Source of the DNA: Psammoneis japonica
Taxonomy: Eukaryota
Direction: 5' to 3'
NCBI GenBank assembly: GCA_008632985.1
Contig: QPGO01000051.1
Location: 248,001 to 312,000, forward strand
Length of the DNA stretch: 64,000 bases
This document shows, piece after piece, positions 1 to 64,000 of the stretch. The notes below the pieces were generated by a model that was not told the DNA's origin, made no database searches, and worked only from the letters and a program-made list of their open reading frames with translations. Positions within the stretch are counted from its first letter, which is position 1. Each line of letters begins with the position of its first letter. A program made the translations under genes and the position numbers.

Positions 1-257
1 CAGCTGCATGGTGCCGTCAATGCCCGTGAGAACCAGCCGGACAGCAAGATGTTGTGTGAGCATGAGCTTGAATGGCCACAGAAGGGTGGCTCCAGCTGGT
101 GCTGGTTGCAGTGGAGTCATCACACAAAATTTTTGAATCTTGGGCTGGATGGCCTGTGCAAGCCAAAAAACATGTCATTTTGTGCCTCTCTTTTCCCCTG
201 TGGTTTTTGGAGACAAGGGTCACCAGCAGAGTGGGTGTTTGTGCACGCTTCAGATTC

Positions 258-280
258 AGAGAGAGAGAGAGAGAGAGAGA
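258..280. repeat. (GA)n microsatellite
   Basis: About 11 AG/GA units read directly. Confidence 0.95.
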
Positions 281-292
281 TGGGTTTCATCT

Positions 293-432
293 TGCTTTTG
301 TCCACAGCATGCACTGAGCAGCAGTGCCTTGCTGATGTGATCAAAACAAATGCTGCCATTTTCAGGTGCTTTTGTCCACAGCATGCACTGGGCAGCAGTG
401 CCCCGCTGATGTGATCAAAACAAATGCTGCCA
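293..432 (+). repeat. Two-copy tandem duplication, period 74 bp
   Basis: tgcttttgtccacagcatgcactg...gatgtgatcaaaacaaatgctgcca at 293-358 and 367-432. Confidence 0.9.
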
Positions 433-1367
433 CAGCATTGTCTCAGCTGTTTGGCACCCCAGAGTGTGCAGTCATTTTTGAAGAAGCAGTTGACAGGTCT
501 GCGCTGACAAGTCTCCTTGACAGCACACAAAGCACCACTCAGGAATTTCTTCTTCTTTTTCTGCAGCAAATCGTGCTAAATTTGGCCATTTTGCCACTTG
601 TTGGCTTGGTTTGGCAGCTTCAAAAATTCTCATTGCCTGGCACTTTTGCTGTTTGTCAATTTGGGTGTCAAGCACTGGCGGTGCTTTCACCCTGCTTTCA
701 TTTGTTGACCTGCCCCATTCAGCCCACAGCAAGAAAGAAAAATTCCATGCTTGCATCTTGGACAGATGTCAGTTGTGCCCCCCCCACAAACTTTGGCCAA
801 ACCAGAGGCATCACACCACATGATGTGCAAAGGGCCGGGGTGTCTGGCTGCAGGCATTGTGGGGGCAAAGTTCTCAGCAACACAAGCAAATGACTTTTGT
901 TGATCTCAGGAGGAACAGCAGCAGATTTTGAGCCATCTTTTGCCAAATCTCTTTCTTGGAGTGTGCCTGCACTGCTTTTTTGCAATGCAGATCAGGAGAA
1001 TGTGCGGGGCCATTCACAAAAGTGCCGCTTGACGCACCCGGGCATGCAGCGGCAGGTTGAGATGCAGCACCGCCAAGGGAAAACCAGTGTCGTGCTGGCG
1101 GTGCTCGAACACAACATTGTCAAAAGTTGAAAGAAGGCGAGCTCTTTTGTGCACAACTTGGCACTTCTCCCTTGTGGTCCCCACATTGAAAGATGTTGAA
1201 AGTTGCGTCTTTCAACCAAAACGTTGTTGAAAGTCATTTGGCGACAAACACTGCGATGACGCTCTGTCAATGTGTCAGAATGCTGAGTGCGTGCCAGCGC
1301 GCTGCGCATTGAAGTGAGTGAAGCATTTCATTCGTGAGTGAGTCGTGAGGCGACTCCCGCGCAGTCT

Positions 1368-1445
1368 CAAGTCGCAGTAGAACACATTTCTACCAAGGAC
1401 CATCAGATCGCGGGCATGTTCACAAAGCCATTGCCAAAGGATCAG
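1368..1445 (+). mobile_element. Ty1/Copia RNase H C-terminal remnant
   Basis: QVAVEHISTKDHQIAGMFTKPLPKDQ resembles the Copia pol terminal motif (QIADMFTKPL). Confidence 0.75.
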
Positions 1446-10420: not shown

Positions 10421-10530
10421 GAGAAAAGGGAATAAATCTACCGGTACGCATGTGATGAGAAAAAGGGAATCTAGCTACGCATGAGAAAAAGGGAATCTAC
10501 GCATGAGAAAAAAGGGAATCTCTACTCATG
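10421..10530 (+). repeat. Imperfect tandem repeat, 4 x GAGAAAAAGGGAATCT(..)ACGCAT
   Basis: Four units read directly, sitting at the left edge of a TpA-depleted block. Confidence 0.85.
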
Positions 10531-11740
10531 GGATCGGGAAACCCAAAAACCATCTGCCTGTTTTTGCCAAGTTTCACACCGGCAGCACCGTCCATGAATG
10601 GCATTTGCAAATTGTTTGTGAATGCAGCACGTCAATGCAACAGAAAAAGCACATGAATTGTGCCAACGGCAGCCATTGAAGCAAGATCGCCAACACATGC
10701 AGCGCGTGCACAAAGCTGCAGAGTGAGCAGGAAAAAAATGCTGTTTCGACAATGGCGCACCTTCGACGCAGCGAGCCCCTCCCAGACACCCACTCATCGA
10801 CTTTTTGACATCACTCGACAAACCACATTTTAGCTGGAACATGTGTGCTCAATTTTTCAGCCGTTGACTCGTTTTTGGTGCCGTGGAGGTTGCTTTGTGG
10901 TGGGAAGGACAAAACAACAGCATGAGGTGCATTTTTCGACGACTCGTTCACACCGGTGCCAGCATCTTCTCAATCAGCATCATGTTGTTTTGGCAGGATG
11001 ATGTTTTTGCACGACTTTTTCGAAAGTCTGGACAGCGGGAGAGTCAAAAAGGCCGCGAAGATTTTCAGCTTCCCGCCAGCAAGAGACTTCAATGTGAGGG
11101 GCAAATCAAAATCAGATGTGATTGACCACTGGCACGCATTTGTGATGCAGTTGACATGCCTCTCCCAGAGTTGGTGTTTGACCCAGAAGCATCAGGAAAG
11201 CAGTGCACCAGGGGTGATGAGCCAACTGGGGTGCGTTGAAGCAAAGGCAGAGAAGGACTGTGGGTGCATGGATGGTGGTTCTGATGATGAGCATGGTTGA
11301 CAGGATGTTCTGCCAAAAGGGGGCAACATTCCGAAAACATCTGGAAGACAAAACAGCATGTTCAGTGTAGAAAACCAACAGATTGAACTGCTCCAGAGAG
11401 CTGACGCTTGCCTCCATCTTAATCGCACTCTGTCAAACCTCCCAGCGGTGGGACTGCAGTGTGTCTGAACAGGTGGCACTTCCAAGATGGTGCTCCCTCC
11501 AATCCCATGCCCGTGGCACAAATGACTGTGAAACAGTTTGGGTGCTGCCGTTCGCCGCCACTTCAATTTAGCATGCAATGCCTCAACCAACGGATGTTGA
11601 TTGTTGGGAGGAACAGGAAATCCAAGCGATTCGTTTGACAACCACCAGCAGATGGCGAAGCACTGCACTCTCAGTGGCATTCTCAGCATGTGTTGATGCG
11701 ATGAAGGATCATCCCAGTGCAATGATGAGAGTCCCCGTCG
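10530..11740. mobile_element. Degenerate TpA-depleted repeat block
   Basis: About four TA dinucleotides in 1.2 kb; Cys/His/Trp-rich spurious ORFs; no recognisable intact domain. Confidence 0.55.
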
Positions 11741-11920
11741 TGTCTAGCAGATTGAGGAAGAAAGTTTAAGATCATGCTGATCAAACGTGCGACTCCTCGT
11801 GATTGGTGGTTGGATCAATAGGATTCATCTTTGTCACTTTTGCTGTAATTGTGTAATCCCTCTTAGAGTATAATGCTTTGAAGTCACGTCAAAAATTTCT
11901 TAAAGTCTCTATCGTAGGCA

Positions 11921-31300: not shown

Positions 31301-31557
31301 AGAAAGACGTGTGGCACCCTTCATATGAAAGCACAACAGTACTCTCAACCTATACTTTGAAAATATATTCTGATTAAACGTGAAATGCGCAGTAAGACGA
31401 GGCAATGAACAGTGCTGAAATGCGAAAGGAAGAGGCTTGCTACCTGACTTGTTTGTAATGGTTACTATAAGGAGAGGGATCGGTCTCTCCAGCAAATGTA
31501 TGTTTGTTCTAAACCGAGGAATGGTCATCGCTTAGAATGCTCCACTTCTCCAGAACC

Positions 31558-44691: not shown

Positions 44692-44710
44692 AGGGAGTGG
44701 TGGGTGGGTG

Positions 44711-44959
44711 CAAAAAATCGCTTTTCCAATGCTTTGGAATGATCCAGTCACGTTGATCAGGGTTCCTGTCTCAACAAAGATGGAAAAGTGAGAGCAACAA
44801 AACGCTGACAGGTTTGACCGGTCTCCGTGACCAGTCATCTTGGAGACCAGTCATCTTGGGCCAGAAGTGCCCGCTTCTGGAAGAGGCACAAGTCTTGGGA
44901 CATTTTCCGATGAAAGGTCTTGCATCGCACTGTTCGTCTCCATCTAAACTTGGGTGCGA
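44711..44959 (-). repeat. Split direct repeat A2
   Basis: Copy of 53531-53763 with a 16-bp internal duplication. Confidence 0.95.
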
Positions 44960-44962
44960 GGA

Positions 44963-45407
44963 GGATTCGATGATGTGAGATGCCGATCCGCATCCGACAA
45001 AAGTCCAGACTGCCAGCCCAAGAACCACTGAGAAGAACCTTGGCATTGGAATGCTTGGGAGTCTCATGGAGCAGAGCTCTCGGCAACACTCTGCTCCGCA
45101 CAAGGGGGGTTGGGCAAAACCCATGCCCTCCGCAGGGTCTCGAGCAAAACTCGAGGGCTCACGATCAGGAACCTCTAGGATCCACTCATGGCGCTTCCAG
45201 TTGAGACCAGTGGGAGGCACCTCCGGCATTTCGCAACGTCGGAACCCCATGCTAGATGAATCTCAGACTTGGAATCGAAGATGACGCCCGACGCTGTTCC
45301 TGTGACTTCACAGCTGATGCGTCGTCTAAAGCAGATCATCAAGGAACCTGGTCCAGACTTTACAGGCAGACTCCCGTGGTCTGACAGTAAAGTTGAGCGC
45401 AAAATCC
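44963..45407 (-). repeat. Split direct repeat B1
   Basis: Copy of 44246-44691. Confidence 0.95.
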
Positions 45408-45493
45408 CCCCCGATGAGAACTCCCAGGTGGTGGCCACCTGAAAAAAGAAATCTTGAGATCCAACGAAGAAGAGGCAGGTGGTGAAGCTTGTC

Positions 45494-47024: not shown

Positions 47025-47063
47025 ATCTTTGGTGTCCCTCGGAGCTGCTGCGGACTGTGAGAG

Positions 47064-50061
47064 ATGAAGGGGAAAACAAGACCGATGAGCAAAGGTTCGA
47101 ACATTTCTTCAGGCCAGAACGCCCCAGCTCCCGCCGGCACCAGAAAGACGAGGTCCGCTGCCTCACACAATTGTTTCTGCCACTCCGGAGTCATTGGGTG
47201 CGGACAGACAAAAATGTGGAACGATTTCTGGCGCTTGAGGTGGGCAATGCAGAGTTCTTCGAGAGCCGTTCTAGCCGCGGCGGGCGGTGGGGCCCAGACC
47301 CAAGTGCCTGACCGGAACACTGGCATCTCAACCGCTTCGCAGGGCGGGCAGTGCCACTCAGATGTGTCGCGGCCCTTCTGGAACCAATCGACAGGAGAAA
47401 GGAGTTCGGCCGTCAGTGATCCCACCCAGGAATGGATCCAATCGAACAGCAGAGGTGCCCGCTCAGTCGCTGCCAAGTGCAAAGGAACAAACGAGAGCAT
47501 CTTGGCCCCATTCAAGACCCCTTCCACAAGATGCCTCGAAAACCCCATCTGTGCCTTGGGCTGTCATGCGTTTGCCCGAGACATGAACCAAGTGGAGAAT
47601 GAACCCGCACTTGGCCTCGAGCACCCGCAACCGTGTCACCTGCTCCAGGAGTTTCAGATTCGACGAGGTTTTTGTAGACTGCAATCTCTGAGACTGAGTT
47701 GTCAGTGAAAAAGCAGAGAGTGGTGCCATCCATTTCCCCCCGACTCAGCCAGCTCCTGGACTGCATCGATTGTGCTCGAAAGTTCCTTCCAATTTGAAGA
47801 ATTGGATTGATCATCGTCGCCCCAGATCCCAATCCGAAACACGATCGCCCCGTCCTTAGTCTGGACGGATGAACCAAGGCCCTTCCCAGACGCATCAGCG
47901 AATCCGCACAGGACCACCACAACCTTGGAGGAGCAGACAATTCCAGCAGCAGGCTCATCCGGTTCCACAATCCGTCGCAAAGCCCGCAAGTCAGAGAACA
48001 ACTGAGGCACTGCACGCACGGTCTCGGGGTGCTTGCCGTCCCGAAGGTTCTCACCAAGCTCACACGGATCAGCACTGAGCTTGTCGGCCTTGTGATGGAT
48101 CCATGCTGTGCACTCCTCATCTGACACAGCCCACCCATCCGCCTTTCGGTTTGGGCGCCAACTGTCCAGTGTCAGGTGAATCCCTTTGAGGAAGGGCATC
48201 AAAAAGGGGCAAGTCATGGCGGCATGGACAAGAAACCCACGCTTTCGTTCGAGGTCCTTAAAGTTGCACTCGGGAGGCCGAGTCATCCATTCCATCGCAT
48301 GACTTAGAAGGGACTCAATCATGCCCTTGCCCTTGTCCCACTTGGCCTGTGAAAGAGATTGGGTGACATTGCGGGCAAGCACGCGGAAAATGGCACCAGC
48401 CCAGGCACCCATCTCCTGCTGGGATGGGGGCTGAACTTTGCGCGGGGCGTTCTGGAGTCCAAGACACTGAAGCCTGGCAGCCATCTGATGTGCCACTTGC
48501 CACGCCTCTTCTTCACTGGCTCCCATGCCTGCAAGTCATCTGCGAAGGTTTTGATGTCTCCAGCGATGATCTTCAGGATGGAGTTCCATTTGATCATGAG
48601 TGGGTCTTGAACCTTGCAACTGGGATCCCCTGGGAGGTTAAAAAGAACTTTGTCAAAGCCCGCGGGGTTCCCCGGACGGCTGGGATCCCCTCGGGCCACT
48701 TCGTCAGCCCAATGATGCGTCTGCACCGCGTTGCAAGGGCTGGGCTTCATTCCCATAAACAGACGGTTCCAACGCTCCATGCCAACAGGAGATTCAGTCG
48801 GCAAGGGCCGTGGGAGGTGGTTGCGGAGCGGAGTGAGATCAACACCGGCAAAGGGTCGAATCCGTGGGTCCATGAAAAAATTGAGAAACATGTCCCCCAG
48901 ATCCAAATCAACAGAGAAAGTTGATTCGGTCATGCACCCTAACACCGACGCTGCAGTTGGAAGGAAGAAAGAAGGAGCCCAGAGAGCGTCGTTTAGACCG
49001 GATGAAGTGCCGTTGTGCACCATCCGGATGTCCTCGACTGCTTCCTCCATCCTCCCGTCAGACCTCGGGACCAAAGACACAGCCTCAGGGACCCAGAAAC
49101 AGTCTGCAAGACTCGAAACTGGAGCACGCTCAATGCATCCATGGTCCCGGACCTTCTGGATTTTGGTTGCCATGCGCTGCACTTCGTTTGCAGAGCCGCA
49201 AACCCGTTGCCACTTGCGGTTCCTGGGTGGCGTGCCTCTTGCGAAAATCGGAAGACCATCGCGTGCTCCCTGGCGTTGCTCAGGCGAGGGCCTGCGCCAG
49301 AAGAAAAGAGAAGAGCCCCGGCCCCAGCTCCACCAGGAACTTGGCAAAGTTTGAGTTAGAACGTCAGTGCCAAGATTCCCGTCCAACAGTGACGCTGGGA
49401 GTGGTGGGTCTCGATGCAAGCCCCCCTGATGACTCAACAGAGAGTCCCCAAACCATTGTCGCAAGCGCAGCAGCTGAGGAACCCATTCCCACCCGTGGCA
49501 TCGACTCATGTGCCCCAAGAACGAGCGAGTCAAACGGCGGTGCCACCACCAAAGAGCCATCACACGCAAAGCTGGAAGGACAGGCCCAAACATGGGAAAC
49601 AAAAGCGCAATCCGCTTGTCCCATGGACGAAAAGGCGGCAATGCCGAATCCCCTTTTGCCGCCTTGGCAGTGACAAGGGACAGGTTGATCCATTCGTGAG
49701 GCAAATGCCGACCAAGCCGAGGCAGCCAAGTGGCCACAGCCGGCTCAATGGCAGGTTCCGAAGGACCCAAAGATGGGTCGAGGACCGCCGGCCGGGTGCT
49801 GGTGGAGCGCTGCTCAATGACGTGGTCAATGACCGAGGCAAGTAGATTCAGTGGGATCAACTGACTCCACACCTCCCCAGAGAGCAAATCCATCATCTCC
49901 CTTGTCCGGAATCGAAGTGGGAAATCCCACGCAGCCAGGAGTTCGTCGTCACTCAACTCCCTGAGGATCCACCCCGCATGGGACCGGTGAGACTGATGTG
50001 ACACTGGCCGGTGAGTGACTTGTGGGCTCACACGATCGCCCTCCCTGTGACACACCCCCAA
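47064..50061 (-). pseudogene. Reverse transcriptase + RNase H + MT-like region of the retrotransposon
   Basis: DIRMVHNGT, DLDLGDMFLNF, MGMKPSPC, FADD; RNase H CGFADASG...SSNWKEL...FFTDN; WVWAPPP...FVCP...W segment. Confidence 0.85.
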
Positions 50062-50417
50062 AGGTTCTGAGGGGCACGGCTGTCCCGCCAGTTTGCAGTC
50101 AATGATGTGGCCAATCGTGCAACACAGGCCCCCCCTGAACTCTGGGAGAGAGCCCCCGACACAGAAAAGGGTCGTTCAAAAGGACGTGACGCCGCCAACC
50201 ACTGAATGGGGTGGGCCAACGTGACACAAGTGCTGAAGCCCTTTCAAGCCACGTCTTGACATCTTGCCGACCGGGGCCAAGTGCATCGGAACATTGCACT
50301 CCAATCGAGAGATCCTCTCCAAGCATGCCGGGTCCCCAGACACCAGTGCCACATCGCCAGCAGGCGCCAAATTGCCAATCCCTGAGAATGGCATGCGTTG
50401 AAGAGATGCACCCTTCT

Positions 50418-50813
50418 GGCGTGTTCCAGCTCTAGGTGGGACCTCGCACTGCTGAACTGTGACATGATTGTTTTTTGTCATCCGTCGCATGTTTCGCACG
50501 TGCATTTCTACGTGTTCTATCATAAAAAATTGTTCCACACTGCCTGTTTTGCGAAGCCAAAGGCTTTCTGTTGTCTGCACTCATGTCAACAAAAATGTGC
50601 TGGGTGTGTTCTTTAATGTCTAAAGAACATGCCCGGGCATGCTGTAAAGAATGTGCTTCAAGTGTGGAGGAGGAGATGCGTTCGCAAAATTGCCTCTTTT
50701 TCTGTTGGCGATCATTCATGCATGCATTGCTCAACAATTTTACTGCGGAGCTCGCACGTAGAATTCTGCGGGCCCAATGTCACAAAAAGTCCCACCCAGG
50801 ACTGGAACCCGTC
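50418..50813. mobile_element. MITE copy 2 nested in the retrotransposon
   Basis: ggcgtgttccagctctaggtgggac ... gtcccacccaggactggaacccgtc; flanks ttct/tcct; homologous to 28427-28816. Confidence 0.88.
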
Positions 50814-51037
50814 TCCTGACCCTCGCAGAGGTGGATGACAGCACACTCCAACAGGGTGGGAGGATCGTTCACACAACACAATGCGACACGAGGCCACTCA
50901 GATGGCCTTGACGCCAGGAGCCAAATGGGGGGGGCGGTGGAAATGATCAAGCAAGACCCATGGAACAAAAACAATTTGCGACCGCGGATGACAAGCCCCA
51001 CATTTTCGAACACAGGTGAGTCCACCCCCTCCGAGTT

Positions 51038-53215
51038 TCATTTCTTGGATTCTATCGCTTTCAGACACCCATTGACCTCTTTGAGTTCCGTTTTCAGTTT
51101 GTTCACCTCCTGGTGCGCCGTGTCAGCTCTGGCCTGTGCCGACTTGGCTTCGGTTCCAGCATTTTTTGCCTTTTCCGTCAGCATTGTCACTGCAGCTTGC
51201 AATGCAGTGACAGCTTCAAAGCCGGAGTTCGTAGCCAGAAATTTCACATGCTCCGATGCCATGGAGGGGTGGTCCCTGAAGTTGTGAGCTGTGTGCTCGG
51301 CCACAATGTCGTGAGACCGAAAAATTGCCCAAAGAATCTGGCTGCACACAGCATCCAGATCTGTCCCCTCGACAGACGTGAAGATGCCGGAGCGAACCTG
51401 ATTGAGATCATCGAAGATTCTGTGCACCAATTTCGAAGTCAAGGACCACGCCTGCTTTTGAGAGAACTTGCTCAGTTGCACCAGGTTCTTGCAAGTTTCA
51501 TCCACAAACTGAATCAAACCCCGAATAAATGCTGCTGACTTCGACAGGGCATCTCGAACCACCTGGCCTTCAAACGACCCCCCCGGGATTCGCTGAGCGA
51601 TGTCGTTCAAAATGTTTCGCTCGATCGTCCCAATTTTATCCATGATAAAATGCTTGGTCCCTGTTGAGCCAGTGGACCAGTGATCATGGGAGGCCATCTT
51701 GTCCAAGAACGACGGGTGAAGGCCCGCCGACTGCGCTCCTTTTGCCGAGCCCGAATCCAAAATTCTCGGCATGCCATGCTGAAAACTCGCCAGAGTCCTT
51801 GCATCCTCCTCCGTGCTGATCTTTGGGTCCATGCGCTTAGCCAGACCAGCCAAAAAATGGTGCAAAGCCGCTGGTTCCGTGCCCGCGATTCGATCCAACA
51901 ACAAATTTGCATCTGTAAGGCAGCCATGCACCCTGGAGGAAAAATGTTGTGCCACCCATGCTTGACATTCTCCAAAAGACGAGACACCGACCCCAGAGAA
52001 CTTGACAGCCGAAGTGTCTGACTTGGACTTCAACTCGTTCACCGCTTGGCTCAGATCCCGCATCTGTCGGTCCACGGAGCTCGAGCTTCCGACTCCTGTA
52101 AACCCCAATCCGCTGCCAGATCCAATCGCGCCTCCAAACGAGGCTCCCGCATTTTCAAGATTCTGAACTCTGCCAATCAACTGGTTGCAAACTTCAAGCA
52201 TGACTGTCCTCAGAGAGTCCATGTCACGCTCAGCTGCCAACCCAGAAATTTTGTTTTGCAAGTTCTGGATGGCGGCACTCACATTTGATGCCAGTCCATT
52301 GGAGCCGGCACGAACATTCGACTCCTGTGCCAAATCTACGGACAAGTCTCTGGGAGGGCACTCGGGTGAGCCGACTGTTGACAGACCAGCAAGTGTTCCC
52401 CAAATCGCAGGGGCTTCCACTTGCTGATCGAATTCCGGTGGAGGAGAACCGAGGGTTGCATCCAGCTGCTCCAACTTGCGGCTGAGGACGCTGACTGAGG
52501 AGTTCGATTCCTTGAAGTGCGCACATGCCTTGTTGCCCATCTCCACCACCGTGTTGCCGGTCTCCGTCAAGTTTCTTTCCAGGGACTGAACAACTCTAGC
52601 CAGGGCCGCAGGACTTTTGTTCGCGGCCAGAAATTGCGCCAGGGTGGTGGAAATCACCCGCTGGTGGGGTGTGAAGTGTCCGAAAAGTGCCCCAGGAAAT
52701 TCCTCGCTGCGGGGATCTTTGCCCTTCACCAGCGTCTTGTAAGCCGCAGCGACTTTGTGCTCCTTCAAAGACGCCCCACATTCTTCCTCCGTAGGACAGC
52801 GAGTGTCGCTGTTCCCGAGAGCCAGAAACTTCTGATGCCACCCTGCCAAAGTGTCGGTGTTCCCTTCCCACCTAACCAGCACCTCCGCCAAGACAAACGA
52901 GCCGTCCAAAGTGGGCTGGCAAAAAGCCGTGTCTGGTGTCTTGAGAATCGACACCATGCCGTCCGAAGGAATGACCTTCTTCGAGCCCTTGTGTTTCACC
53001 TTGCAATCCCCAGCTTTCTTGAAACAGAACGTGGCTCCACCCCCGACAACCCCAAGGCAACGGGAGTTGTCGGCACCTTCGATCCAGGTGACATGAAAAC
53101 GAGGTGCATCAGACGAAGGAGACGTGCCTTCCTCCATCGAGCCAGATGCACCTCGAGCCGCTCCCTCATCCTCCACTGCGAAAAAATCAACGCGGGGAGC
53201 GCCGTGATTTGACAT
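51038..53215 (-). CDS. ORF1 (gag-like, coiled-coil) of the YR retrotransposon
   Basis: Long open frame directly after A1; C-terminal coiled coil; only one Tyr in the 732-aa track ORF. Confidence 0.7.
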   Translation of the reverse strand: MSNHGAPRVDFFAVEDEGAARGASGSMEEGTSPSSDAPRFHVTWIEGADNSRCLGVVGGGATFCFKKAGDCKVKHKGSKKVIPSDGMVSILKTPDTAFCQPTLDGSFVLAEVLVRWEGNTDTLAGWHQKFLALGNSDTRCPTEEECGASLKEHKVAAAYKTLVKGKDPRSEEFPGALFGHFTPHQRVISTTLAQFLAANKSPAALARVVQSLERNLTETGNTVVEMGNKACAHFKESNSSVSVLSRKLEQLDATLGSPPPEFDQQVEAPAIWGTLAGLSTVGSPECPPRDLSVDLAQESNVRAGSNGLASNVSAAIQNLQNKISGLAAERDMDSLRTVMLEVCNQLIGRVQNLENAGASFGGAIGSGSGLGFTGVGSSSSVDRQMRDLSQAVNELKSKSDTSAVKFSGVGVSSFGECQAWVAQHFSSRVHGCLTDANLLLDRIAGTEPAALHHFLAGLAKRMDPKISTEEDARTLASFQHGMPRILDSGSAKGAQSAGLHPSFLDKMASHDHWSTGSTGTKHFIMDKIGTIERNILNDIAQRIPGGSFEGQVVRDALSKSAAFIRGLIQFVDETCKNLVQLSKFSQKQAWSLTSKLVHRIFDDLNQVRSGIFTSVEGTDLDAVCSQILWAIFRSHDIVAEHTAHNFRDHPSMASEHVKFLATNSGFEAVTALQAAVTMLTEKAKNAGTEAKSAQARADTAHQEVNKLKTELKEVNGCLKAIESKK

Positions 53216-53530
53216 GCTTTCTGCCCTCGAGAGCAAGGCATCGAATGCAGAATCTGGGTCAGGGGAAATGACTTCCCCAATTCCGCACGCTCAATGTCCG
53301 AATGTCCCATGTCGCCAGTCATTTCTTCAAGATTTGAGCCCCCAAGAGAGGGGCTCAAGCCTTCAACACCCCCCTGATGACCCACCGCAGAGGGTGGGGC
53401 CCGAGAAGCAGGCGACGCGGGAGACTGCACCAAAAAAGGAGAAATGACATTGGACTCTCACGTTGACGAAGGCACCATCATCGATGCCAGAGGAGAAGCA
53501 GTCGGACATGGTCGGGAGAGGGAGAGGGAG

Positions 53531-53763
53531 CAAAAAATCGCTTTTCCAATGCTTTGGAATGATCCAGTCAAGTTGATCAGGGTTCCTGTCTCAACAAAGA
53601 TGGAAAAGTGAGAGCAATAAAACGCCGATAGGTTTGACCGGTCTCCGTGACCAGTCATCTTGGGCCAGAAGTACCCGCTTCTGGAAGAGGCATAAGTCTT
53701 AGGACATTTTCCGATGAGAGGTCTTGCATCGCACGGTTCGTCTCCATCTAAACTTGGGTACGA
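53531..53763 (-). repeat. Split direct repeat A1 (5' end of the element; retains its TA dinucleotides)
   Basis: Copy of 44711-44959. Confidence 0.95.
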
Positions 53764-55795: not shown

Positions 55796-56928
55796 CTACT
55801 CAATGCTAGCATCGTAGTAGAAAAGAGGAAGATAAACCCATTGACCAATGCTGTTGGCTTCACAGATCATTGCCCCGTCGAGTTCATGGTCGCCCACCTG
55901 TGCTGGCATAGATGCAGCCGTTGCTGTTCTCCTCTGGCTGCTCAAGTTCTGAGCGCGTCGAAACCGAGCGAGTTCTGCCTGACATCGAGAGGCGTCCTTG
56001 GCCACCTGAACGAGAACTTCGCCAAGGACAGAGGGGTGCTGGAGCTTGATAGTGGCAACATCATCCACATTGACATTGTTCCAGTTTTCAACAAGCACTT
56101 GAATGCAGCGCTTCTGGAGGGAAGTCTGACTGGTGTGGCTTGGTTCAACGATTTTGCGTTCAGCATCCAACAGGCGAATGGCTGCATCTTGATGAACTTG
56201 TGGCAAGACACCTTGGGCTGTCAGGCCATTGAAACTGGCAGCGTCCATTTCAACGTTTTGAAACAATTCTGAAAGAAGACAACTCATGTGACGGCTCGAT
56301 TCTCTCCCCTGGGGCATTCCTCTCAGCAACAAAAGCCAAAAGTCCGGATCATTGACATGCACAATCCGAGAGGAGGTGTCAATGTCTAGAATGTTTTCCT
56401 TGAACATTCCGAGAGCAGCGTTCAATGCCTTTTCTTCATTCAAAGCCTTTGCATGTTCAATGCATGCACCGCATGTGTTGCTGCTGATGTCTTGAGTCCA
56501 GAACTTCTTGGTCTTCCAACGCAAATGTTGAATGCCAAAATGCTGAGAGAGGTGGCAAAGCGATGTGGCATTCTGAGTGTCAATGTCAAGAGCATCATCA
56601 GCAGCATGGATGTGATCCAACAAAGCAGGAAAGGCTTTCGCAGCAAGCTCTGGTGGCTCAATCTTGCTCGTCTGAGTTTGCTGTTCAGCAAACTCATTTT
56701 GAAAGAGCGAGCAGTGACAATCGCTCTTTCTTGCTCCCACGACAAGCACAATCTCATGCACATGGCAGTCCTTGCTTTTCAGTTCGTCGGACGAACAGTC
56801 CTTGCAGCTTGTCTGCACGCACCAGTCACTCAGACTCTGTTCCGGGTCAATCCTCCAGCTCAGTTCGGGGTGTTCTGGTTCTTGGTCAGAATCGAAAGCA
56901 TCCTGAACCGCGTCCGGGTCATTCGCAT
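55796..56928 (-). pseudogene. Diatom-type BTB/POZ-domain gene eroded by TpA mutation
   Basis: LSWRIDPEQSLSDW...CHVHEIVLVVG...AFPALLDHIH...LCHLSQHFGI; Tyr occurs only in the last 14 codons. Confidence 0.75.
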
Positions 56929-57006
56929 GCTGTTGTTTGCTGCGGCAACTGTCCCTTGAAGATCAACGAGACATTGCCACCAAAATGATCCACTCCAATC
57001 CGACCA

Positions 57007-60000
57007 TGGAAATGAGCTAGATGACAGCATGAGCTGGGGCAACAACCATCTAAAGCAGATGTGTGTCAACAGCGACCACTGTCAAAGAGATTCTGATCCT
57101 CGTGAAAGTCAAAATCCGCAAGAAGTGAGAGAGAGCTTCAAACCAAAAGTCTGAAGAGAGCAAAGAAGATGCCGGTTTGGCACTGGATTCCACGAGAAAG
57201 GAAGTGGATCGGACAACCCAGGAACCAAAAGGCCATCAATGGACCAAACCACTCAATGAGAAAAACCCAACAGTCCTCAATCAGACAAAGAAGCCAAACG
57301 CTCATGAAAGTCAAGACAGTGAAGTCCCATGCGAGACCTGCCAACTCCCGTGTGTGACCAACCCACGTCATAGATCAGAAACCGCAACTCTCGTTGCTTG
57401 CTCTCCCTCTCGAGAAGACGTCGACTGCAAGACGTCAGATCGCCATTGAAAAAAATTCAAACGAAGTTCGCACCAAAACACAACCCATCATGCAATGATG
57501 CGACACCACATGCAGAGATGTGACAACCCCAGTCATCACACCTGATTGCCATCACCCTTTTCATGTGCAACACATGCATTCAAACTTGAATCAACATGTG
57601 CACAAAGTGAGTCCACCAGCTGCCTGCCACCTCATCAACTTCTTCCGCAAATGCCAAACTTTTCCTGAACCAAACCCTTTGCAAAGATGTCTGCCAACTG
57701 TTCCTCACAAGCAATCTTTTGAATGTAAATCAAAGAGTCAGGCCTTGCAATGCGAGACACCTGAAGAAATGACACTTGACCGCGACATGCTTGGCACGAG
57801 AAGTCATCTTCGGCATCGTGGCCAGCGTCAAAGCACTGTTGTTGTCCTCAAAAATGGCAGAATGGAGCAACATTTCATCATCCCAATCAATGCTCATTGA
57901 AGAAGAAACTTCCTTGATGAGTCTTTTCATGGGCAGCAGGACTCTCATCACCTGAGACAAGAGGTGACATGCTCCACCTCGAGCACAGACAAAGCAATCT
58001 TGGTCTGCAGCTTGGAAGCCCATGTCAAGGGGTTGCTGCCAATGGTCAACAAGCAACCAGACCAACTCTTGACACACACACAGAATCCTGTGGGTCCTCA
58101 TGGTTCCAAAGCCCAGTGAAATCCATGTCACAACAACAATCCAACCTTGAGTCATCGAAGACGTCACAGCAAAAATGACACTGCGATCCTTTGTGCCTTG
58201 AAGATGCCTGGCAATCCACTTGGCAGCTTCCTCATGGCTCTTCTTGGGATTGTGCATGAACCCAACACAGCTGCAAACCACATTTTGAATGTTGGGCCTG
58301 GCACTGGAAGCCAGATGGAGCATCACACCAATGGCACTTGCACAGCTCCACGATTCAACTCGTTTGGATCCGTCGGCATCGGTGGCCAAAGGAGATGAGC
58401 TGGCAGGAGTCTTCTTGACATGACAATCCTCCACATTTGCAGCAGCAATGATCTTCTTGACAAGACCCTTTTGAGTGAGATGAGCAGTTCCAGCCTCATC
58501 ATCCCCATCATTGTCAACGCCAAGAAAGTCATTTGCATCGTCAGAAACATCAAGTTCATGACTGCTGGTCTTGAGCTCACTCACGATGTCATCGATTCTC
58601 ACAAGATCCTTCACAAAGAATGAACAATCATCAACATGTGCAAGGCAAACAACATCTTTGCCGATGAACAAACAAGGGTCGCTCTCACCAGAGTGCAATC
58701 CAACCTCTTCCAGACCCTTGGACAGGTGCTGGAACCATGCAGTCACTGCTTGGCGCAAGCCGCAAAGGCTCTTGTTTAGCTTCAGTGTGCAGTCTCCCTC
58801 ATGTTTCATCTCAAAGAGCTTGGGTGATTCAACACAAACACCCCTTCAAGAATGTCTGCCTGAGCAAAAGCGAGGGCATGATCCACTTGACGTGACACCA
58901 ATCCACACAGGTTCGACAGACTCATGAGCAATGAGCAACCACACTGAACCATGCTCTGCTGGACCACCGGAGCATCCGTCGGGGCATCTCTTGATTTTAA
59001 ATGCCCAAGTGCCAGTCAAAACATTGCATTTGATGGCGCCGACTCGCGCAGCACGGAGCAAATGAATTTTGTTGCGTTGGGTCATTGATTTCAGATTGCA
59101 TGGCCTTCTTGAACTCTTCTGCATGCACCCTGCCATTGCTTCATGATGTAAAGGGGGGCACCAGGATCGCGAGTCTTCTTGCTTGCAAAAGAATCCAACA
59201 GGCAGGGTGACAATGGACATGCTGAATTGACACCATCACCATCGAGATCAGCGAACATTGCACGCATCTTTGCAAATTCCACTGTTCTGCAACCAGACTT
59301 GAGCCAACAAGTTAAGTTGGAGATGAAAGAGGCCGCGCCTTTAAGAGCATGCCCATCACAACCATGGTGTTTGTCGGAACCTTCACAACCATGACAATCT
59401 GGAGGATGAATGGTTCTTCCAGAGCATGTCCAAACCGGAGTTGGGTCACTTGGAGCTTCTTGGAAATGGCCGTCATTGTTGACAATCAAAGGCATTTCTT
59501 GAGATCTTGGGATTCTTGAGTCTCCCTCTGGAGGCTCGGACACATCAGCTGGAGCCAAAGGAGACTCAATGCTCAGAGGAGCAACTTCGTCATGAATGAA
59601 ATTGGGAGAGGACAGAGAAAAAATGCCCCTGACAGATTAATTTTGACCCCTCACAGATCAGTCGTAAAATGGGAATCCACGACTAAAACAACATGCACCG
59701 CTTCGCCACTTCTGCATCCCAGAATTTAGAAAAACAGTTTTGCACGGTCAGGGTTGGGGTTTTGCATGGTCAGGGTTGGTTTTTGGGGTTTAGGTTGGGG
59801 GGCAGGGAGTGGGACTTTTGGCAAACTCCAGTTTGTGAATGAGCAAGATTCCACAAAAAAAGTCAATCTATGACAGGACCGAGCCAATCTGTGAGGAGTT
59901 GGCACCCAAGGACAGAAGACCTGGCAAAACATCTTCAGAACATGGAACACTTGACCATCTGGGAGTGGCAGAACATCCTTGGGAAGAAGACGGCACCCTT

Positions 60001-63000
60001 GGAGATCTGGGCATTCTTTCCCTCTGTTCCGTTGGTGCTGACCTGTGCTCATCGTTGCCTTCACAACTCTTCCTGTTGGCACGTTGATCACATGATTTCT
60101 CAGCAGCAAGCCAATCATCTGACAATGGAGGCAATTCTAAACCATCATCAGCATCCACATGATTTCTCAAAGCAGTGAAAAGATCCAGCCAGTTGCGTGG
60201 TGGCATCCGTTCATCATCCAAGTGAACCACCTCAAACCAATTGTCACAAACAACAACATGGAGTTGAGGCAACACAGAACCACTCTTGAGATTCTGCATT
60301 GAACCAATGTTGCTCGCATGGTCAGGCAAATGACCCACAAACTGTCCCCTGCAGCTTCAGGCTTTCCAATGAATCATTTTCTTGCCATCTTGCAATGTTG
60401 GATCCAACACGTGGGTCGGGCATCCCCAAACAGCCAAATTTGTGAGGGTTGATTTTGAAGAAACTTTCACTCCCATGAAGACTTCTTTGGGACATGATCT
60501 GTTGAAATCCATTTGTGGGGTCAAGTTCCATGAGTGGACAGAATGACTCATGGCCATGGGCCACAAATCCATCTCTGCTGCATCTGGCCATTGAACTGCT
60601 GCAGCATGAAACACCACAGATCTTGCACATGTTGCTTGCTTGGCAATGGCGTTCTGATGGTGCGCACCTTTCTCCTTGAGTTCCATGAGGAATTCTTTGC
60701 TCACAAAAATCCTGTCATCCAATTGACATGCTTGGACAGAGACACCAGCAGAAGCAGCCTCCCTCTTGAAACTGATTTTGCTCTTGACAGTCTCGAAGGC
60801 ACTGGACAAAACTTGATGATGAACTGACACCTTGCCAGATGCAGTGTCAACAAAAACAGTTCTGCCGCCACATTTGTCTGCCTCTTTGGTCTTCCCATGG
60901 GATTTGAACAGACGACCTTGAACAGAGGATGCACGCTGGCCTGCAGCAACAAGTTGTCCAGGATGAAGAATGTCAGTCTTGAGAGATTGATCCCAGCTGG
61001 GAACCTTTTCAGCCCACACAGCTCCGGTCAGACGAGGAGTCATTTGACCATGTTGACATGCAGCGCACTTGGGATTTTTGACAGCAGTGGAGCTGATGGT
61101 TCTTGCAGCATGCTGAACATTCAATGTGATCAAAGCCAAGATGACCAAGGCAAAAGTGCCACTGCAAAAGTCTCTTTTTTGCTTCTGAAACAAATTTTGG
61201 TTGAATTCATCCATCACACACACGTGTGGATGCATTTCTTCTGGTTCGCTGCTGAAAAAGGATTCCTTCCAATCGCAGCAGGGAGCCTGTCAGTTTCATG
61301 ACAAGGCACAGCAACAGTGCCACCGTCACACCAATGAAAGAAAGCGAGGTCCTTGGAGGTGTTGACATTGAGGAGCCTGCAGCCCAAGCTGCTGCCACAT
61401 TTGTCGTCCCCACAATGAGCAACACTCAACAACTTCACAGGAGAAGTCGGAATGCAAAAGCACTCTGTGCGGACATGTTGTTCACGTCCGGCATCATCAA
61501 ATGCCATCCATTCAACAACACCCACACCCTCTGACGACATCAACATGACCTCCAACATGAAGGAAGTGGCTCAGTTTGTCAAATGTTTGAAAGTTTCAAA
61601 GGTGCAAAGTCTTCCTTGTCAAAGGCAGAAGTTGCGTTGGCCCCAGAATTGAACAAGATCTTGAGTTGCTTGTCGTGAGGGGACAAAAAGGACATCGGAA
61701 GATGGCTGACTTGTTCCCTCAAATCAACATTCACAAAATGGTGCGCGAGCATGCACGATGCAACATTTGGAAGTTGGAAGGTCCGAATCATGGTTTGTGA
61801 TCTCGTGAATCGATTTGTCACAACAATGATGACAACACTTGAAATCAAAATCTGGCACTTGATCATGCAGATGCTTGATTTCTTGAAGAGTCATGTGACG
61901 TTTCTTGGAAGAGCTTGGCCACAGAGCTGGGTAAATCCCAACAAACATCAAAATGATCACCAACACATGAATCAATTGATGATGGAATGTTGAACAAAAT
62001 GTTGTCCGTTGAGCCTTCTGGAACAACTGTGGCTCAGTTGAGACTTCAGGATTGGGCAGCTCCTTCTTCTTGGGCATCTCCACATCATGTTGGACAAATC
62101 CTGGCATCCATTGGAATGCACATGGATGACATTTGCAGACTGCAAAGCAGAGCATCACAAAAGACCACATGGATGTCATGCTGCATGCCGACAAAATGCA
62201 CAAGGCTTCTGGATGCACTTCCAATGCCACTCGGATCTGAATCTTCTTTTGCATCAGTTTCCCTCTGATGATTGGTTTTAAATGGGACAGGACTCTTTGT
62301 GAATGACAAACCAACAATCCACTGGCCCATTGGTTCAACAAGTTGCACACCAAAGCACAGCCCATGAAGATCCGATTCGATGCACTCTGGGCCAAAGTGC
62401 ACTCTTGAGAGGCTTGGGCAGTGCCAGAACCTTGCACAGAAGCATCCCAAGATGTCATTGGCATTGGAAGTGCAACTCTTGGATTGGCTTTGAGCAGCAG
62501 CAGTGGCACTCTGAGTGTTTGCATCGGCAGCTCCCTCTGGAGCTGAATGATTGGCAGTTTCATGAGTGGCCCAGCACCCACATCTGCCACACCAATGCTT
62601 GGTCACACCATTGGAGACTCAAGCATGAGATTCTCCATGTCTCAGAGGAATCTCACAAGGATCCCTTTGAGTTCAAGCAGCCTGGCATGGCCAGCAATTG
62701 CAGCAATCGCCACGACCACAACCACCTCCACCCCAATCTCCATGACCACCACCACGTCCACCATGGCCTGGGTTTCCACATCCACTGCCACCACCTTGAC
62801 TGTTGTTGTTCCGGGGTTGAGGGCAGCTTGGATGGATGTGGCCTCATTGACCACAGTTGCAGCAAACACAATTGTCTGCGCAGTTTAGAGAAGTGGCAAA
62901 TCTGGACTTGCCTGCATTTGAAGAAGTTCATTCTTCACAATCATCCACCAAACTTGTGTGTGACTTGTTTGCATGCACAGTGAGATTGCCGTGCATGCAT

Positions 63001-64000
63001 CTCATCAAATCCACATCAACTTTGTTGAAAGAGAGTCACAAATTGAATCTAAAATGACTCGAGAACTGTTGATGTTGCAAGACCACTGCAAATGATCAAA
63101 GCAGCATCTTCGGGAAGCTTGTGATGGCCTTCTTGGCATCTGCACAATTCAACAACCTTTGCAGCACAGTTCTTGACATTCTCTCCTGGCTCTTCCTTGA
63201 GTTTCACAGCCTTGAGTTTGTCCACCACCATGCACAGAGCCCACTCAGTTGATGAATGCAACTTGTTGGCAGTGACAAGCTTGCAGACAACGGGCCCATG
63301 CGTGGGTCCACCAATGTGCTTCTGGGTGTCACCGTGTGGGGTGACAACCAACCAAGTTTAGAAAGAACTGTTTGGGCCAAAGCAAGTTTTGATGATCACA
63401 TTGGCCACCCATTGTGAGCGACTCTTGCAGATCCGACAAGCTGCAATCCATCACGAGATTCAACTCTTGAGGTGCCCCAGTCCTCGGGTCTCTCCTCTGG
63501 ATGCAGAGCGCGGAATCCGTGCCACTCATGAGAACACATTTGCCAACAGAGTTGGTCCAACTGATGAGAGTCACCTTGCAATCCTTGCCAGTGTCAATCT
63601 TTGACTCCAAGCCTTTGTGACAGCAAGAGACAATTGTTGTTGTGTGACAGAATGACATCGGACGTTGACATCTAGGTCCACAAGCCATGGCATGTGGACC
63701 AGTGATTCTCGGACCATCGGTCCAAGTGATGTGCCTCAAGAAGTGGAGAAGTGACCTTGAGATTGATCCCCAAACTTGGCACTTGAATCATCTGACGTGT
63801 CATTGTTGCCAAACAAACTGGCGTCATGCCGACAAGAGTGTTTCTTGATCCTCCAGAACAATCACTCATTTCGGAGAATCAGAGGTCTTGCTTCATGTCA
63901 ATTTGCAGACCAGTCAATTCAAAGCAATGACAACACTTGGGCTCACAACCACGGAAGTGAGCTAGATGACAGCATGAGCTGGGGCAACAACAACTGTCCA
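57007..64000 (-). mobile_element. Ty1/Copia (CoDi-like) LTR retrotransposon, degenerate; 5' LTR runs off the window
   Basis: Order gag, PR (61214-61558), IN (60357-61235, GAHHQN, WGCP..VLDP), RT/RH (57730-59220, SLCGLRQA, HVDD, KHVAVKCHFFR); LTR-end match 57003-57046 vs 63948-63991. Confidence 0.9.
63938..63950 (-). other. Primer-binding site, half-tRNA-iMet type (mutated)
   Basis: Minus strand GGTTGTGAGCCCA next to the LTR end; the Ty5/copia-type PBS is GGTTATG(A/G)GCCC. Confidence 0.65.

Follow-up and report, generated by a model that had tools for sequence, protein, structure and literature searches.

Why should five stretches of a diatom contig contain almost no TA? We analysed 64,000 nucleotides of Psammoneis japonica (contig QPGO01000051.1, positions 248,001 to 312,000; hereafter, the window). 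An earlier note on this DNA had pointed out five such blocks and attributed them to a mutator that acts on TpA.

Five blocks depleted in TA

The five blocks do exist, with edges within ~130 bp of those first proposed. Block B3 is interrupted by an insertion, so we list it as two parts.

1..1377, no strand assigned: TA-depleted block B1; extends past the left edge of the window; no family assigned to its content
10524..11744, no strand assigned: TA-depleted block B2; no family assigned to its content
25455..28428, no strand assigned: TA-depleted block B3, left part; no family assigned to its content
28817..31323, no strand assigned: TA-depleted block B3, right part, recognised by composition
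43457..53617, minus strand: TA-depleted block B4; most of it is a single three-ORF retroelement that bears split direct repeats, with ~790 bp of unassigned TA-free DNA at the left
55850..64000, minus strand: TA-depleted block B5; a degenerate Ty1/Copia element from ~57003 to past the window end, with 1.15 kb of TA-free DNA at the left

Together the blocks cover 26,391 bp and hold 102 TA, where the frequency in the remaining DNA predicts 912 (Poisson P ~7e-257, with the rest of the window as the baseline). The ratio of observed to expected TA (o/e) is 0.01–0.10 in the blocks versus 0.58 in the other 37.6 kb, and 90–99% of the TA is gone from each block. None of the 84 one-kb windows inside the blocks has more than 10 TA, and none of the 134 outside has fewer than 23, which separates the two sets completely. 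The intervening genes have normal TA, as the earlier note had said (o/e 0.41–0.84 per kb). The dinucleotides AA, TT, and AT are not depleted in the blocks.

CA and TG are enriched (o/e 1.29–1.89 in the blocks versus 1.16 elsewhere in the window), and CG is reduced to roughly half (0.35–0.67 versus 0.98), which bears out the suggestion that CpG decay runs alongside the loss of TpA. In B1, B2, both parts of B3, and B5, the combined loss of TA and CG equals the combined gain of CA and TG within 2–10%. B1 has a single TA, exactly as reported (o/e 0.01, at position 577), with o/e of 0.39 for CG, 1.89 for CA, and 1.64 for TG (loss of 100 versus gain of 102). B2 has 4 TA (o/e 0.05), with CG at 0.59 and both CA and TG at 1.67 (loss of 70 versus gain of 77). 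The left part of B3 has 12 TA versus 114 expected (loss of 199 versus gain of 207), and the right part has 9 versus 91 (183 versus 193). B5 has 26 TA in 8151 bp, the “about two dozen” of the earlier note, versus 315 expected (562 versus 519). The balance is poor for B4 (loss of 488 versus gain of 258), which has 50 TA versus 300 expected, a GC content of 0.549, and o/e of 0.10 for TA and 0.67 for CG; the genes are probably an unsuitable baseline for the element in this block. Many consecutive 1-kb windows of B3 and B5 have TA o/e of 0.01–0.14 and mean CA/TG o/e of 1.49–1.87. One-kb windows of B4 fall below the TpA cut-off, but their CA/TG is mostly 1.27–1.54. The counts of CA and TG are near even in all six regions (147:155, 132:122, 321:317, 281:276, 893:829, and 938:767), in agreement with the claim that both strands are affected about equally.

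The earlier note had also assigned every block to a transposon, of unrelated classes. This holds for two of the five, B4 and B5, which have recognisable retroelement genes; the other three did not match any family. A tblastn search with 192 retroelement proteins gave no match in B1–B3, and the stop-to-stop frames of B1 (8 frames), B2, and the left part of B3 had no Pfam match. Across the blocks, 2 of 133 stop-to-stop frames match Pfam (RVT_2 and a weak BTB), and tyrosine makes up just 0.11% of the residues of 206 stop-to-stop frames. Rfam and tandem-repeat scans of the window found nothing relevant. The left part of B3 sits between a pair of paralogous genes for light-harvesting proteins.

Direction, strand, and timing of the change

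Within B3, B4, and B5, we examined these features:

28429..28816, no strand assigned: MITE-like insertion within B3, TA-normal, with terminal inverted repeats of ~25 bp
44246..44691 (A), 44693..44959 (B), and 44963..45407 (A'), minus strand: split direct repeats at one end of the B4 element; A and A' share 94% identity across 446 bp
46871..50538, minus strand: ORF2 of the B4 element, encoding a reverse transcriptase / RNase H polyprotein (tblastn with 150 relatives, E down to 1e-179)
50420..50813, no strand assigned: second copy of the MITE within B4, partly mutated, recognised by its similarity to the B3 copy
51041..53290, minus strand: coiled-coil ORF1 of the B4 element, 750 codons long and Gag-like in its position
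53514..53763, minus strand: repeat B' at the opposite end of the B4 element, 88% identical to B; its outer ~150 bp lie beyond the depleted block
55799..56962, minus strand: open frame of 388 codons that weakly matches BTB/POZ (Pfam BTB, E = 1.1e-5, 26 bits versus a cut-off of 20.5)
57733..58845, minus strand: Copia reverse-transcriptase frame (Pfam RVT_2, 55.3 bits versus a cut-off of 31.6)

We classify the element in B5 as Ty1/Copia by its RVT_2 match, which is above the cut-off, and by a polyprotein that is collinear with those of its relatives (tblastn with Copia polyproteins covers 57653–59154 and 59922–61531). A 44-bp direct repeat (57003–57046 and 63948–63991) is probably the edge of an LTR that is cut off at the end of the window. 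The BTB-like frame lies in TA-free DNA outside of the Copia element. Its sole tyrosines are among its last residues, which are beyond the depleted block, and we found no homologue; a host gene caught by spill-over is one candidate for it.

The element in B4 has the order B', ORFs, A', B, A on the minus strand, which is similar to the split direct repeats of DIRS and Ngaro elements (whose layout we take to be A1-ORFs-B1-A2-B2). We liken it to DIRS/Ngaro by this layout alone and do not file it as a member. The polyprotein and its relatives have nothing above the cut-off in Pfam, no match in NCBIfam, and no solved structure (by profile or by single sequence); RVT_1 matched the relatives only below its cut-off. 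ORF2 has 1962 relatives at E ≤ 0.001, with consensus motifs FVDD, DASG, and TDN. Its frame is broken near 48530 and near 47000, and is also split by the second MITE copy. Relatives of the element have an ORF1 of 763–791 amino acids. A DIRS/Ngaro element would also carry a tyrosine recombinase gene; intact relatives have a third ORF (497 or 525 amino acids) without a match in Pfam or NCBIfam, and the 497-residue product also has none among sequences with solved structures.

Both elements have lost their tyrosines. ORF1 of the B4 element has one tyrosine in 750 residues, and the ORF2 frames of 618 and 389 residues have none. At the 8 columns of ORF2 where tyrosine is conserved (from an alignment of 19 of the 150 listed relatives), we found three histidines, three cysteines, one phenylalanine, and one valine; unlike tyrosine, most other classes of conserved residue were retained at 50–100%. 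Similarly, at 10 conserved-tyrosine columns, the Copia reverse transcriptase has four cysteines, three histidines, and one each of isoleucine, tryptophan, and valine, and its YVDD-type motif reads HVDD. (Of 42 matches, 25 were aligned, and the 19 of these with normal tyrosine gave the consensus.) So across two unrelated retroelements, tyrosine was kept at 0 of 18 columns and 13 of 18 have histidine or cysteine, in a ratio of 6:7; none have arginine (CGY). Loss of TA is not characteristic of the family, to judge by 80 metagenomic loci that carry relatives of one element: their TA is normal (o/e 0.40–0.84, with 0 of 1821 one-kb windows below 0.30), in a set that is skewed toward unmutated copies, as one of the two scan patterns demanded tyrosine or phenylalanine.

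Repeats within the B4 element give an independent view. A and A' differ by 18 substitution events: six are CA versus TG, six are TA versus CA or TG, four are CG versus TG or CA, and two are adjacent pairs of such steps. All 18 are at steps derived from TA or CG, with no transversions and no other transitions. With AA, TT, and AT not depleted either, it is TpA specifically that is lost, to CpA or TpG, as the earlier note had claimed. (Six of the events are ambiguous, because a difference of CA versus TG can stem from an ancestral CG or TA.) In the other pair, 8 TA remain in the outer repeat B' versus 1 in the inner repeat B, and at all 6 differences of TA versus CA or TG, it is B' that carries the TA.

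The MITE, presumably a DNA transposon, is present in two states. The copy in B3 holds 27 TA and 28 CG in 388 bp, with the outermost TAs in its two terminal repeats, and its flanks are free of TA for 339 bp leftward and 1081 bp rightward. The copy in B4 has only 9 TA. In the aligned arms, the B3 copy carries the TA at 5 of 5 differences of TA versus CA or TG.

Taken together, the loss of tyrosine, the substitutions between A and A', the MITE pair, and the normal TA of relatives argue that the change took place on DNA, after integration, on both strands, and region by region. As read from these comparisons, the direction is from TA to CA or TG, rather than a gain of CA and TG, and the change is specific to the TpA step. 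Within one element, the two repeats were mutated independently of each other. Unrelated elements and their flanks were hit, with adjacent genes spared, and the action is progressive: the unmutated MITE, the partly mutated MITE, and the saturated host elements form a series.

The surviving TAs point to a preference for certain flanking bases. None of the 102 TAs in the blocks are in ATAC, GTAC, or ATAT, versus 30.6% of 1497 TAs outside the blocks; these three contexts make up 24.6% of 25,444 TAs in the relatives. The 5' neighbours of the surviving TAs are also skewed (chi-square 84, P = 4e-18). By 3' base, the ratio of blocks to the rest is 0.05 for TAC, 0.03 for TAT, 0.19 for TAA, and 0.15 for TAG. 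These counts indicate that R-TA-Y sites are gone and that Y-TA-R sites survive best. If the attacked base were the A of 5'-TAY, then a particular product should predominate in each of four mixed contexts; the predicted product gained more in two of these, equally in one, and less in one. Because this result is mixed, we make no claim as to which base is attacked.

Proposed mechanism and its rivals

We propose that the blocks are probably silenced and mostly dead mobile-element DNA, with a near-saturated footprint of TpA-specific DNA hypermutation and with the decay of methyl-cytosine on top. Either position of the TpA palindrome would change from T:A to C:G, leaving each site as CpA or TpG, and methyl-cytosine decay (CpG to TpG or CpA) would be superimposed in the same blocks. 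The silenced state of the DNA, which is marked by CpG decay, may be what recruits the mutator, and the process would be of the same kind as the one that was measured in Bigelowiella natans. Changing TpA to CpA or TpG never makes a stop codon, but it removes all tyrosine codons, TAA and TAG, and any signals that contain TA, so an element would lose its function while its frames stay open. If the mutation is real, then the leading candidate for its chemistry is that a TadA/ADAT2-like enzyme deaminates the adenine of 5'-TA in DNA; we give this about an even chance. Under the same assumption, a thymine-side route is a weaker candidate, and some other chemistry is weaker still. As the earlier note had remarked, the enzyme is not evident locally: the 64-kb window contains no deaminase or other candidate enzyme.

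Could the thymine of TpA have been attacked in the same hypermutation? For instance, a TET/JBP-type dioxygenase could convert T to 5-hydroxymethyl- or 5-formyl-uracil, which mispairs with G, giving T to C. The footprint is symmetric, and A-to-G on one strand is indistinguishable from T-to-C on the other. TA and CG are both lost in the same blocks, and both steps begin with a 5-methyl-pyrimidine (T or 5mC), which might let a single reader of methyl-pyrimidine-purine steps mark the two of them. The mixed outcome for 5'-TAY also fits an attack on thymine. In dinoflagellate DNA, 5-hydroxymethyluracil reportedly prefers TpA and TpC, but it is weakly mutagenic, and nothing in the window indicates a dioxygenase. 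Furthermore, the one paper that we found on this spectrum (bioRxiv 10.64898/2026.01.13.699255) proposes adenine deamination and puts forward an ADAT2-like candidate. We consider it unlikely that thymine was the target.

It is more doubtful that the TAs are real and that a long-read platform misread them as CA or TG, owing to a modified base at TpA (and 5mC at CpG). Miscalling of one strand at a palindromic site would likewise yield CA or TG and nothing else, within sharp chromatin domains. The species is absent from the protein collection (an exact look-up of 8 gene products from the window found none of them, and the best match was 63% identical), so its assembly is likely to be recent and based on long reads. 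However, the TA-normal island coincides with the exact ends of the MITE, which is simple to explain by insertion after mutation, unlike a present-day chromatin mark. With 90% or more of the TA gone from every block, both modification and miscalling would need to be near complete. The elements also show frame breaks and further decay. And B. natans has the same footprint, along with the same de novo spectrum, in Illumina data and in an older reference assembly, according to that preprint.

An ADAR-like enzyme might instead have hyperedited double-stranded retroelement RNA (A to I) before it was reverse-transcribed into DNA. Both of the identified elements are retroelements, and ADAR-type enzymes favour a 5' U (according to bioRxiv 10.64898/2026.01.13.699255). 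But the two repeats within a single integrated element acquired their mutations independently; the MITE and DNA outside of the elements (43457–44245 and 55850–57002) were mutated too; and the outcomes on the sense strand are even, where editing of a sense template would yield mainly TG. Also, TAG outlasts TAC and TAT, which is opposite to the preference of ADAR for a 3' G. These sequence comparisons largely refute RNA editing before integration, and we view it as very improbable.

The least probable of these alternatives is that the elements were always poor in TA, due to avoidance of a TA-reading nuclease or to a codon habit, for example. The genes are also somewhat low in TA (o/e 0.58), and a few relatives in the databases are poor in tyrosine, with phenylalanine at conserved tyrosine columns. 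Nevertheless, conserved and partly catalytic tyrosine columns read histidine or cysteine here, the relatives are TA-normal, the repeats of one element differ precisely at steps derived from TA or CG, and non-coding DNA and both strands are hit equally. For the copies in the window, we take the tyrosine replacements and the repeat comparison to refute native composition. Finally, as the earlier note had argued, neither fungal-type RIP nor CpG decay alone can explain the loss of TpA: RIP goes in the wrong direction (TA is down to 0.01–0.10 and CA/TG is up to 1.3–1.9), and CpG decay, which cannot remove TA, accounts for about half of the gain in CA and TG.

Significance and comparison with known systems

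If hypermutation of TpA is the correct reading, then the same footprint in a diatom extends the process to a second algal lineage, which is distant from the first and ecologically dominant, and adds ordinary retrotransposons and a MITE to the viral inserts among its targets. The co-occurrence with CpG decay and the flank preference are two handles toward the enzyme, whose identification could reveal a natural editor of DNA adenine (or thymine). More practically, TA-erased blocks yield long false ORFs without tyrosine, mask transposon domains from profile searches, and could pass for sequencing error. Tentatively, and with less confidence than in the footprint, we suggest that TpA erasure could be a conserved genome defence of the SAR supergroup or of eukaryotes more widely, in which a TadA/ADAT2-related deaminase or another base modifier is drawn to silenced mobile DNA and with time converts every TpA there, best at R-TA-Y, and reaches saturation in diatoms beside CpG methylation. 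Elements would die through the loss of tyrosine codons and TA signals, with their frames open, and some transposon lineages may escape by replacing tyrosine with phenylalanine.

Fungal RIP converts CpA/TpG to TpA, raises AT content, and makes stop codons. As in ascomycete RIP, dinucleotide-specific transitions on both strands inactivate repeated or mobile DNA, in sharp blocks between normal genes. The direction is opposite: here TpA becomes CpA or TpG, GC rises slightly, and stop codons are impossible. RIP would raise TpA/ApT and lower (CpA+TpG)/(ApC+GpT); in the blocks, TA falls and CA and TG rise. Methyl-cytosine decay at CpG occurs in the same blocks (CG o/e 0.35–0.67) and has the same products, TpG and CpA, but does not remove TpA. 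In animals, APOBEC3 acts on cDNA and ADAR on double-stranded RNA, before integration and on one strand, giving G-to-A or sense A-to-G. These deaminases resemble the process proposed here in that nucleic-acid deamination is directed against mobile elements and leaves clustered transitions in integrated copies. Unlike them, the changes here are post-integration, on both strands, bound to TpA, and include the MITE and flanking DNA. Sense-only A-to-G change before integration, as expected from ADAR, is not what we found (6 histidines and 7 cysteines, and repeats that were hit independently).

The closest match is in the chlorarachniophyte B. natans, where integrated viral DNA undergoes hypermutation of TpA to TpG or CpA (Mettrop et al., bioRxiv 10.64898/2026.01.13.699255). 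This 2026 preprint puts out of date the earlier note's remark that it knew of no described system of this kind. It is the one previous report that we found of a TpA-specific mutator of foreign DNA; we found none for diatoms, and these are absent from the main text of the preprint. (What is available of PMC4504042 mentions TA solely with regard to nucleosome positioning.) Of the 231 mutations that fell within two hypermutable regions in Illumina-sequenced mutation-accumulation lines of B. natans, 230 were A-to-G or T-to-C changes, each of them at a TpA, and the de novo rate was ~1000-fold over background (bioRxiv 10.64898/2026.01.13.699255). Across that genome, TpA-poor coding sequences are enriched in reverse-transcriptase and DDE domains (same preprint).

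The two cases differ in host (a diatom, which is a stramenopile, versus a rhizarian), in targets (retrotransposons and a MITE versus giant-virus and virophage inserts), and in extent (TA o/e of 0.01–0.10, near saturation, versus 0.45 in the B. natans virus region). We have a footprint alone, whereas a mutation rate was measured in B. natans. CpG decay coincides with TpA loss here and is not mentioned in the preprint's abstract, Results, or Discussion; likewise, we see a preference for R-TA-Y over Y-TA-R, while its main text makes no reference to flanking bases. What they share is the TpA target, the two products, the restriction to foreign or mobile DNA, and multi-kb clusters with TpA loss and CpA/TpG gain that include reverse-transcriptase genes. 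As in B. natans, the changes in the window are confined to TpA to TpG or CpA (18 of 18 repeat events at steps derived from TA or CG, and 13 of 18 tyrosine columns with histidine or cysteine and none with arginine), and mobile DNA is hit (retroelements in two of five blocks, and two MITE copies) while host genes are spared.

Extent and contents of the TA-depleted blocks

We think it quite likely that the blocks described here reflect real, TpA-specific hypermutation that struck a diatom's silenced mobile DNA after its integration, layered on CpG decay. The whole window contains 1599 TA dinucleotides, and their distribution is very uneven. Six stretches, which make up five blocks (B1 to B5), are almost without TA:

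1-1377: B1
10524-11744: B2
25455-28428: B3, left part
28817-31323: B3, right part
43457-53617: B4
55850-64000: B5

The block coordinates and TA counts in the earlier note were right to within ~130 bp. The observed/expected ratio (o/e) of TA is 0.01-0.10 in the six stretches, as compared to 0.58 in the other 37.6 kb. In sum, the blocks contain 102 TA, versus the 912 that the TA rate elsewhere in the window predicts (Poisson P ~7e-257). 1-kb windows have at most 10 TA inside the blocks (n = 84) and at least 23 outside (n = 134), without overlap. CG is also reduced in the blocks (o/e 0.35-0.67 versus 0.98 in the rest), CA and TG are raised (o/e 1.29-1.89 versus 1.16), and AA, TT, and AT are at ordinary levels. 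Relative to a gene baseline, the gain of CA + TG matches the loss of TA + CG in five of the six stretches (loss/gain of 100/102, 70/77, 199/207, 183/193, and 562/519). In B4 the loss is 488 and the gain is 258, probably because the gene baseline is ill-suited to the element in B4.

B5 holds, on the minus strand, a degenerate Ty1/Copia element with an RVT_2 domain above the Pfam cut-off and 42 polyprotein relatives (tblastn matches over 57653-59154 and 59922-61531). Its LTR is probably represented by a direct repeat of 44 bp seen at the window edge. B4 holds a second retroelement, with three ORFs, that is unrelated to the Copia element. We found 1962 relatives of its ORF2 at E ≤ 0.001, whose consensus has the motifs FVDD, DASG, and TDN; no Pfam family matched this RT/RNase H polyprotein above the cut-off. 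The element ends in split direct repeats (minus-strand order B', ORFs, A', B, A), a layout like that of DIRS/Ngaro-type elements. Profile and structure-sequence searches of the relatives' ORFs did not show a tyrosine recombinase, so we do not assign the element to that class. Three-ORF retroelements of this type (window 43457-53763, minus strand; metagenomic loci L004 and L005) are widespread, and common in marine metagenomes. Their ORF1 and ORF3 are without annotation, and the family seems to be undescribed or poorly modelled.

There are also two copies of a MITE-like element (~390 bp; its terminal inverted repeats are ~25 bp long), at 28429-28816 in B3 and 50420-50813 in B4. B1, B2, and B3 gave no family match, either with Pfam on stop-to-stop frames or by tblastn with retroelement proteins. 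So the statement that the blocks coincide with transposons of unrelated classes holds for two of them (the retroelements of B4 and B5).

Between the blocks are these genes:

M13 peptidase
ABC1 kinase
family-C receptor
ABC transporter
light-harvesting proteins (two genes)
ankyrin protein
MFS transporter
GT90 glycosyltransferase

The closest relatives of the M13 peptidase are at most 63% identical, and the named ones are nearly all from diatoms, which makes the host a diatom as well. The light-harvesting genes (chlorophyll a/b-binding family; 24208-25122, minus strand, and 31537-32391) are paralogues that border B3 and are 80-87% identical in parts; they may have been duplicated in connection with the insertions at B3.

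Depletion ends at most a few hundred bases from the neighbouring genes, and it also covers 43457-44245 and 55850-57002, which lie outside recognisable elements. On one side of B4, the depleted domain ends ~150 bp inside the outer repeat of the retroelement (53618-53763 is spared), which is 380 bp upstream of the start of the GT90 gene. On the other side, depletion reaches ~790 bp past the retroelement. Because ~150 bp of repeat is spared and ~790 bp of flank is covered, the domain edges track the adjacent genes and not the element ends. We also noticed a 388-codon open frame (55799-56962, minus strand) with a weak match to BTB/POZ; it lies beyond the Copia element, in TA-free DNA, and has tyrosines solely in the end that protrudes from the depleted block. 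A homologue search with this frame found none. Possibly the mutator spilled over into a host gene and destroyed it; the frame may also be another element remnant.

Direction and context of the changes

The tyrosine codons, TAT and TAC, require TA. Across 206 stop-to-stop frames of at least 70 codons from all blocks, tyrosine is 0.11% of residues, and the second element's three long frames have 1 tyrosine in 750 residues, 0 in 618, and 0 in 389. In the Copia reverse transcriptase, none of the 10 conserved-tyrosine columns (Tyr in at least 60% of 19 homologues with normal tyrosine content) has tyrosine; instead there are 4 Cys, 3 His, and 3 others, and the YVDD-type motif is HVDD. The 8 such columns of the second element have 3 His, 3 Cys, 1 Phe, and 1 Val, and most of its other conserved residue classes are retained at 50-100%. 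A single step from TA to CA or TG turns a tyrosine codon into His (CAY) or Cys (TGY). Arg (CGY) is found at none of the conserved-tyrosine columns of either element. Since these columns hold mainly His and Cys but never Arg, TA was lost from the elements, which were not TA-poor from their origin. Among 80 metagenomic relatives of the second element, the o/e of TA is 0.40-0.84 and 0 of 1821 one-kb windows are below 0.30, although this control favours copies without mutation, since Tyr or Phe was demanded by one of the two patterns used in the scan. CA and TG counts are about equal in every block, and His:Cys at the former tyrosine columns is 6:7, so both strands were used.

By logic, neither a T-to-C change ahead of A nor an A-to-G change behind T can create a stop codon; only the conversion of TAA to TGA occurs. 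On both strands, the blocks contain 82 TAA, 74 TAG, and 1196 TGA, and they are rich in long empty open frames.

The surviving TA are not a random sample of contexts (5'-neighbour test: chi-square 84, P = 4e-18). None of the 102 is in ATAC, GTAC, or ATAT, contexts that make up 30.6% of the TA in the rest of the window and 24.6% of those in the 80 relatives, and TTAA, CTAA, and CTAG are over-represented by 2-4-fold. Relative to the rest of the window, TAC and TAT occur in the blocks at ratios of 0.05 and 0.03, versus 0.19 for TAA and 0.15 for TAG. Together, the survivor contexts and these ratios indicate that R-TA-Y sites were lost first. Judged by mixed-context products, attack on the A of 5'-TAY was favoured twice, left neutral once, and contradicted once. 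The natural substrate of TadA-type enzymes is the U-A-C of the tRNA anticodon loop. A preference for TAC would fit this type of enzyme, but it is only a lead.

Some intact database relatives of the two retroelements are also very poor in tyrosine. In P0135, 5 of 1531 residues are Tyr (14 conserved-tyrosine columns: 5 Tyr, 5 Phe, 2 Cys, 1 His, 1 Leu), and none of the 506 residues of P0178 is Tyr (9 columns: 5 Phe, 3 His, and a gap); P0130 is another. Replacing Tyr with Phe removes TA yet conserves function, so, judging from these sequences, adaptation to a TpA mutator may have occurred in some transposon lineages.

Specificity and timing from repeated copies

In the second element, 18 substitution events distinguish repeat A from repeat A', which lies 270 bp away: CA stands against TG in 6 of them, TA against CA/TG in 6 (three in each direction), and CG against TG/CA in 4, and 2 are adjacent pairs of such TA- or CG-derived steps. 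There are no other transitions and no transversions. (The CA-versus-TG sites are ambiguous, as they could also derive from CG.) The outer repeat B' extends ~150 bp beyond the depleted block and retains 8 TA, compared with 1 in the inner repeat B; at all 6 TA-versus-CA/TG differences, the TA is in B'. These differences imply that the copies mutated independently after integration, by changes tied to TpA and CpG steps.

The B3 copy of the MITE contains 27 TA, and the TA-normal stretch runs exactly from terminal repeat to terminal repeat, with no TA for 339 bp leftward or 1081 bp rightward. The copy in B4 has 9 TA, and all 5 informative differences in the arms have TA in the B3 copy. Saturated host elements, a partly mutated insert, and an untouched insert are a time series, so the process acts on a region, over time, and on DNA. 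The two copies, one unmutated and one lacking two thirds of its TA, could also be used to time the hypermutation in relative terms.

We also considered that a modified base at TpA might have been misread, strand by strand, by a long-read base-caller. This would likewise yield only CA or TG, and would itself imply an unusual base. However, it seems improbable given that the edges of the TA-normal island coincide exactly with those of the MITE, that 90-99% of TA sites are affected, that the elements also carry frame breaks and other decay, and that the same footprint appears in an Illumina-based precedent from Bigelowiella natans (bioRxiv 10.64898/2026.01.13.699255).

Proposed mechanism and the precedent in Bigelowiella natans

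The TpA mutator very probably works region by region on DNA after integration, progressively and on both strands, with its effects layered on CpG decay. If the mutation is real, adenine deamination is the leading candidate for the chemistry, at about even odds, and thymine oxidation is a less likely alternative.

In Illumina-sequenced mutation-accumulation lines of B. natans, 231 of 302 new nuclear single-nucleotide mutations were in two regions, one an integrated giant virus and the other a virophage, and 230 of these 231 were A-to-G or T-to-C, all at TpA (bioRxiv 10.64898/2026.01.13.699255). The mutation rate in these two regions was ~1000-fold over background. The authors proposed DNA adenine deamination and named, without a test, an ADAT2-like candidate; the preprint's main text mentions neither diatoms nor flanking context. 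A full-text literature search found this spectrum reported nowhere beyond that preprint, and not for diatoms. The earlier note had proposed a both-strand mutator at TpA, and knew of no described system of the kind. In substance this stands, but its novelty does not, as the preprint already describes such a process (10.64898/2026.01.13.699255). The system in the window appears to be of the same kind as that of B. natans, but in a host from a distant lineage, the diatoms.
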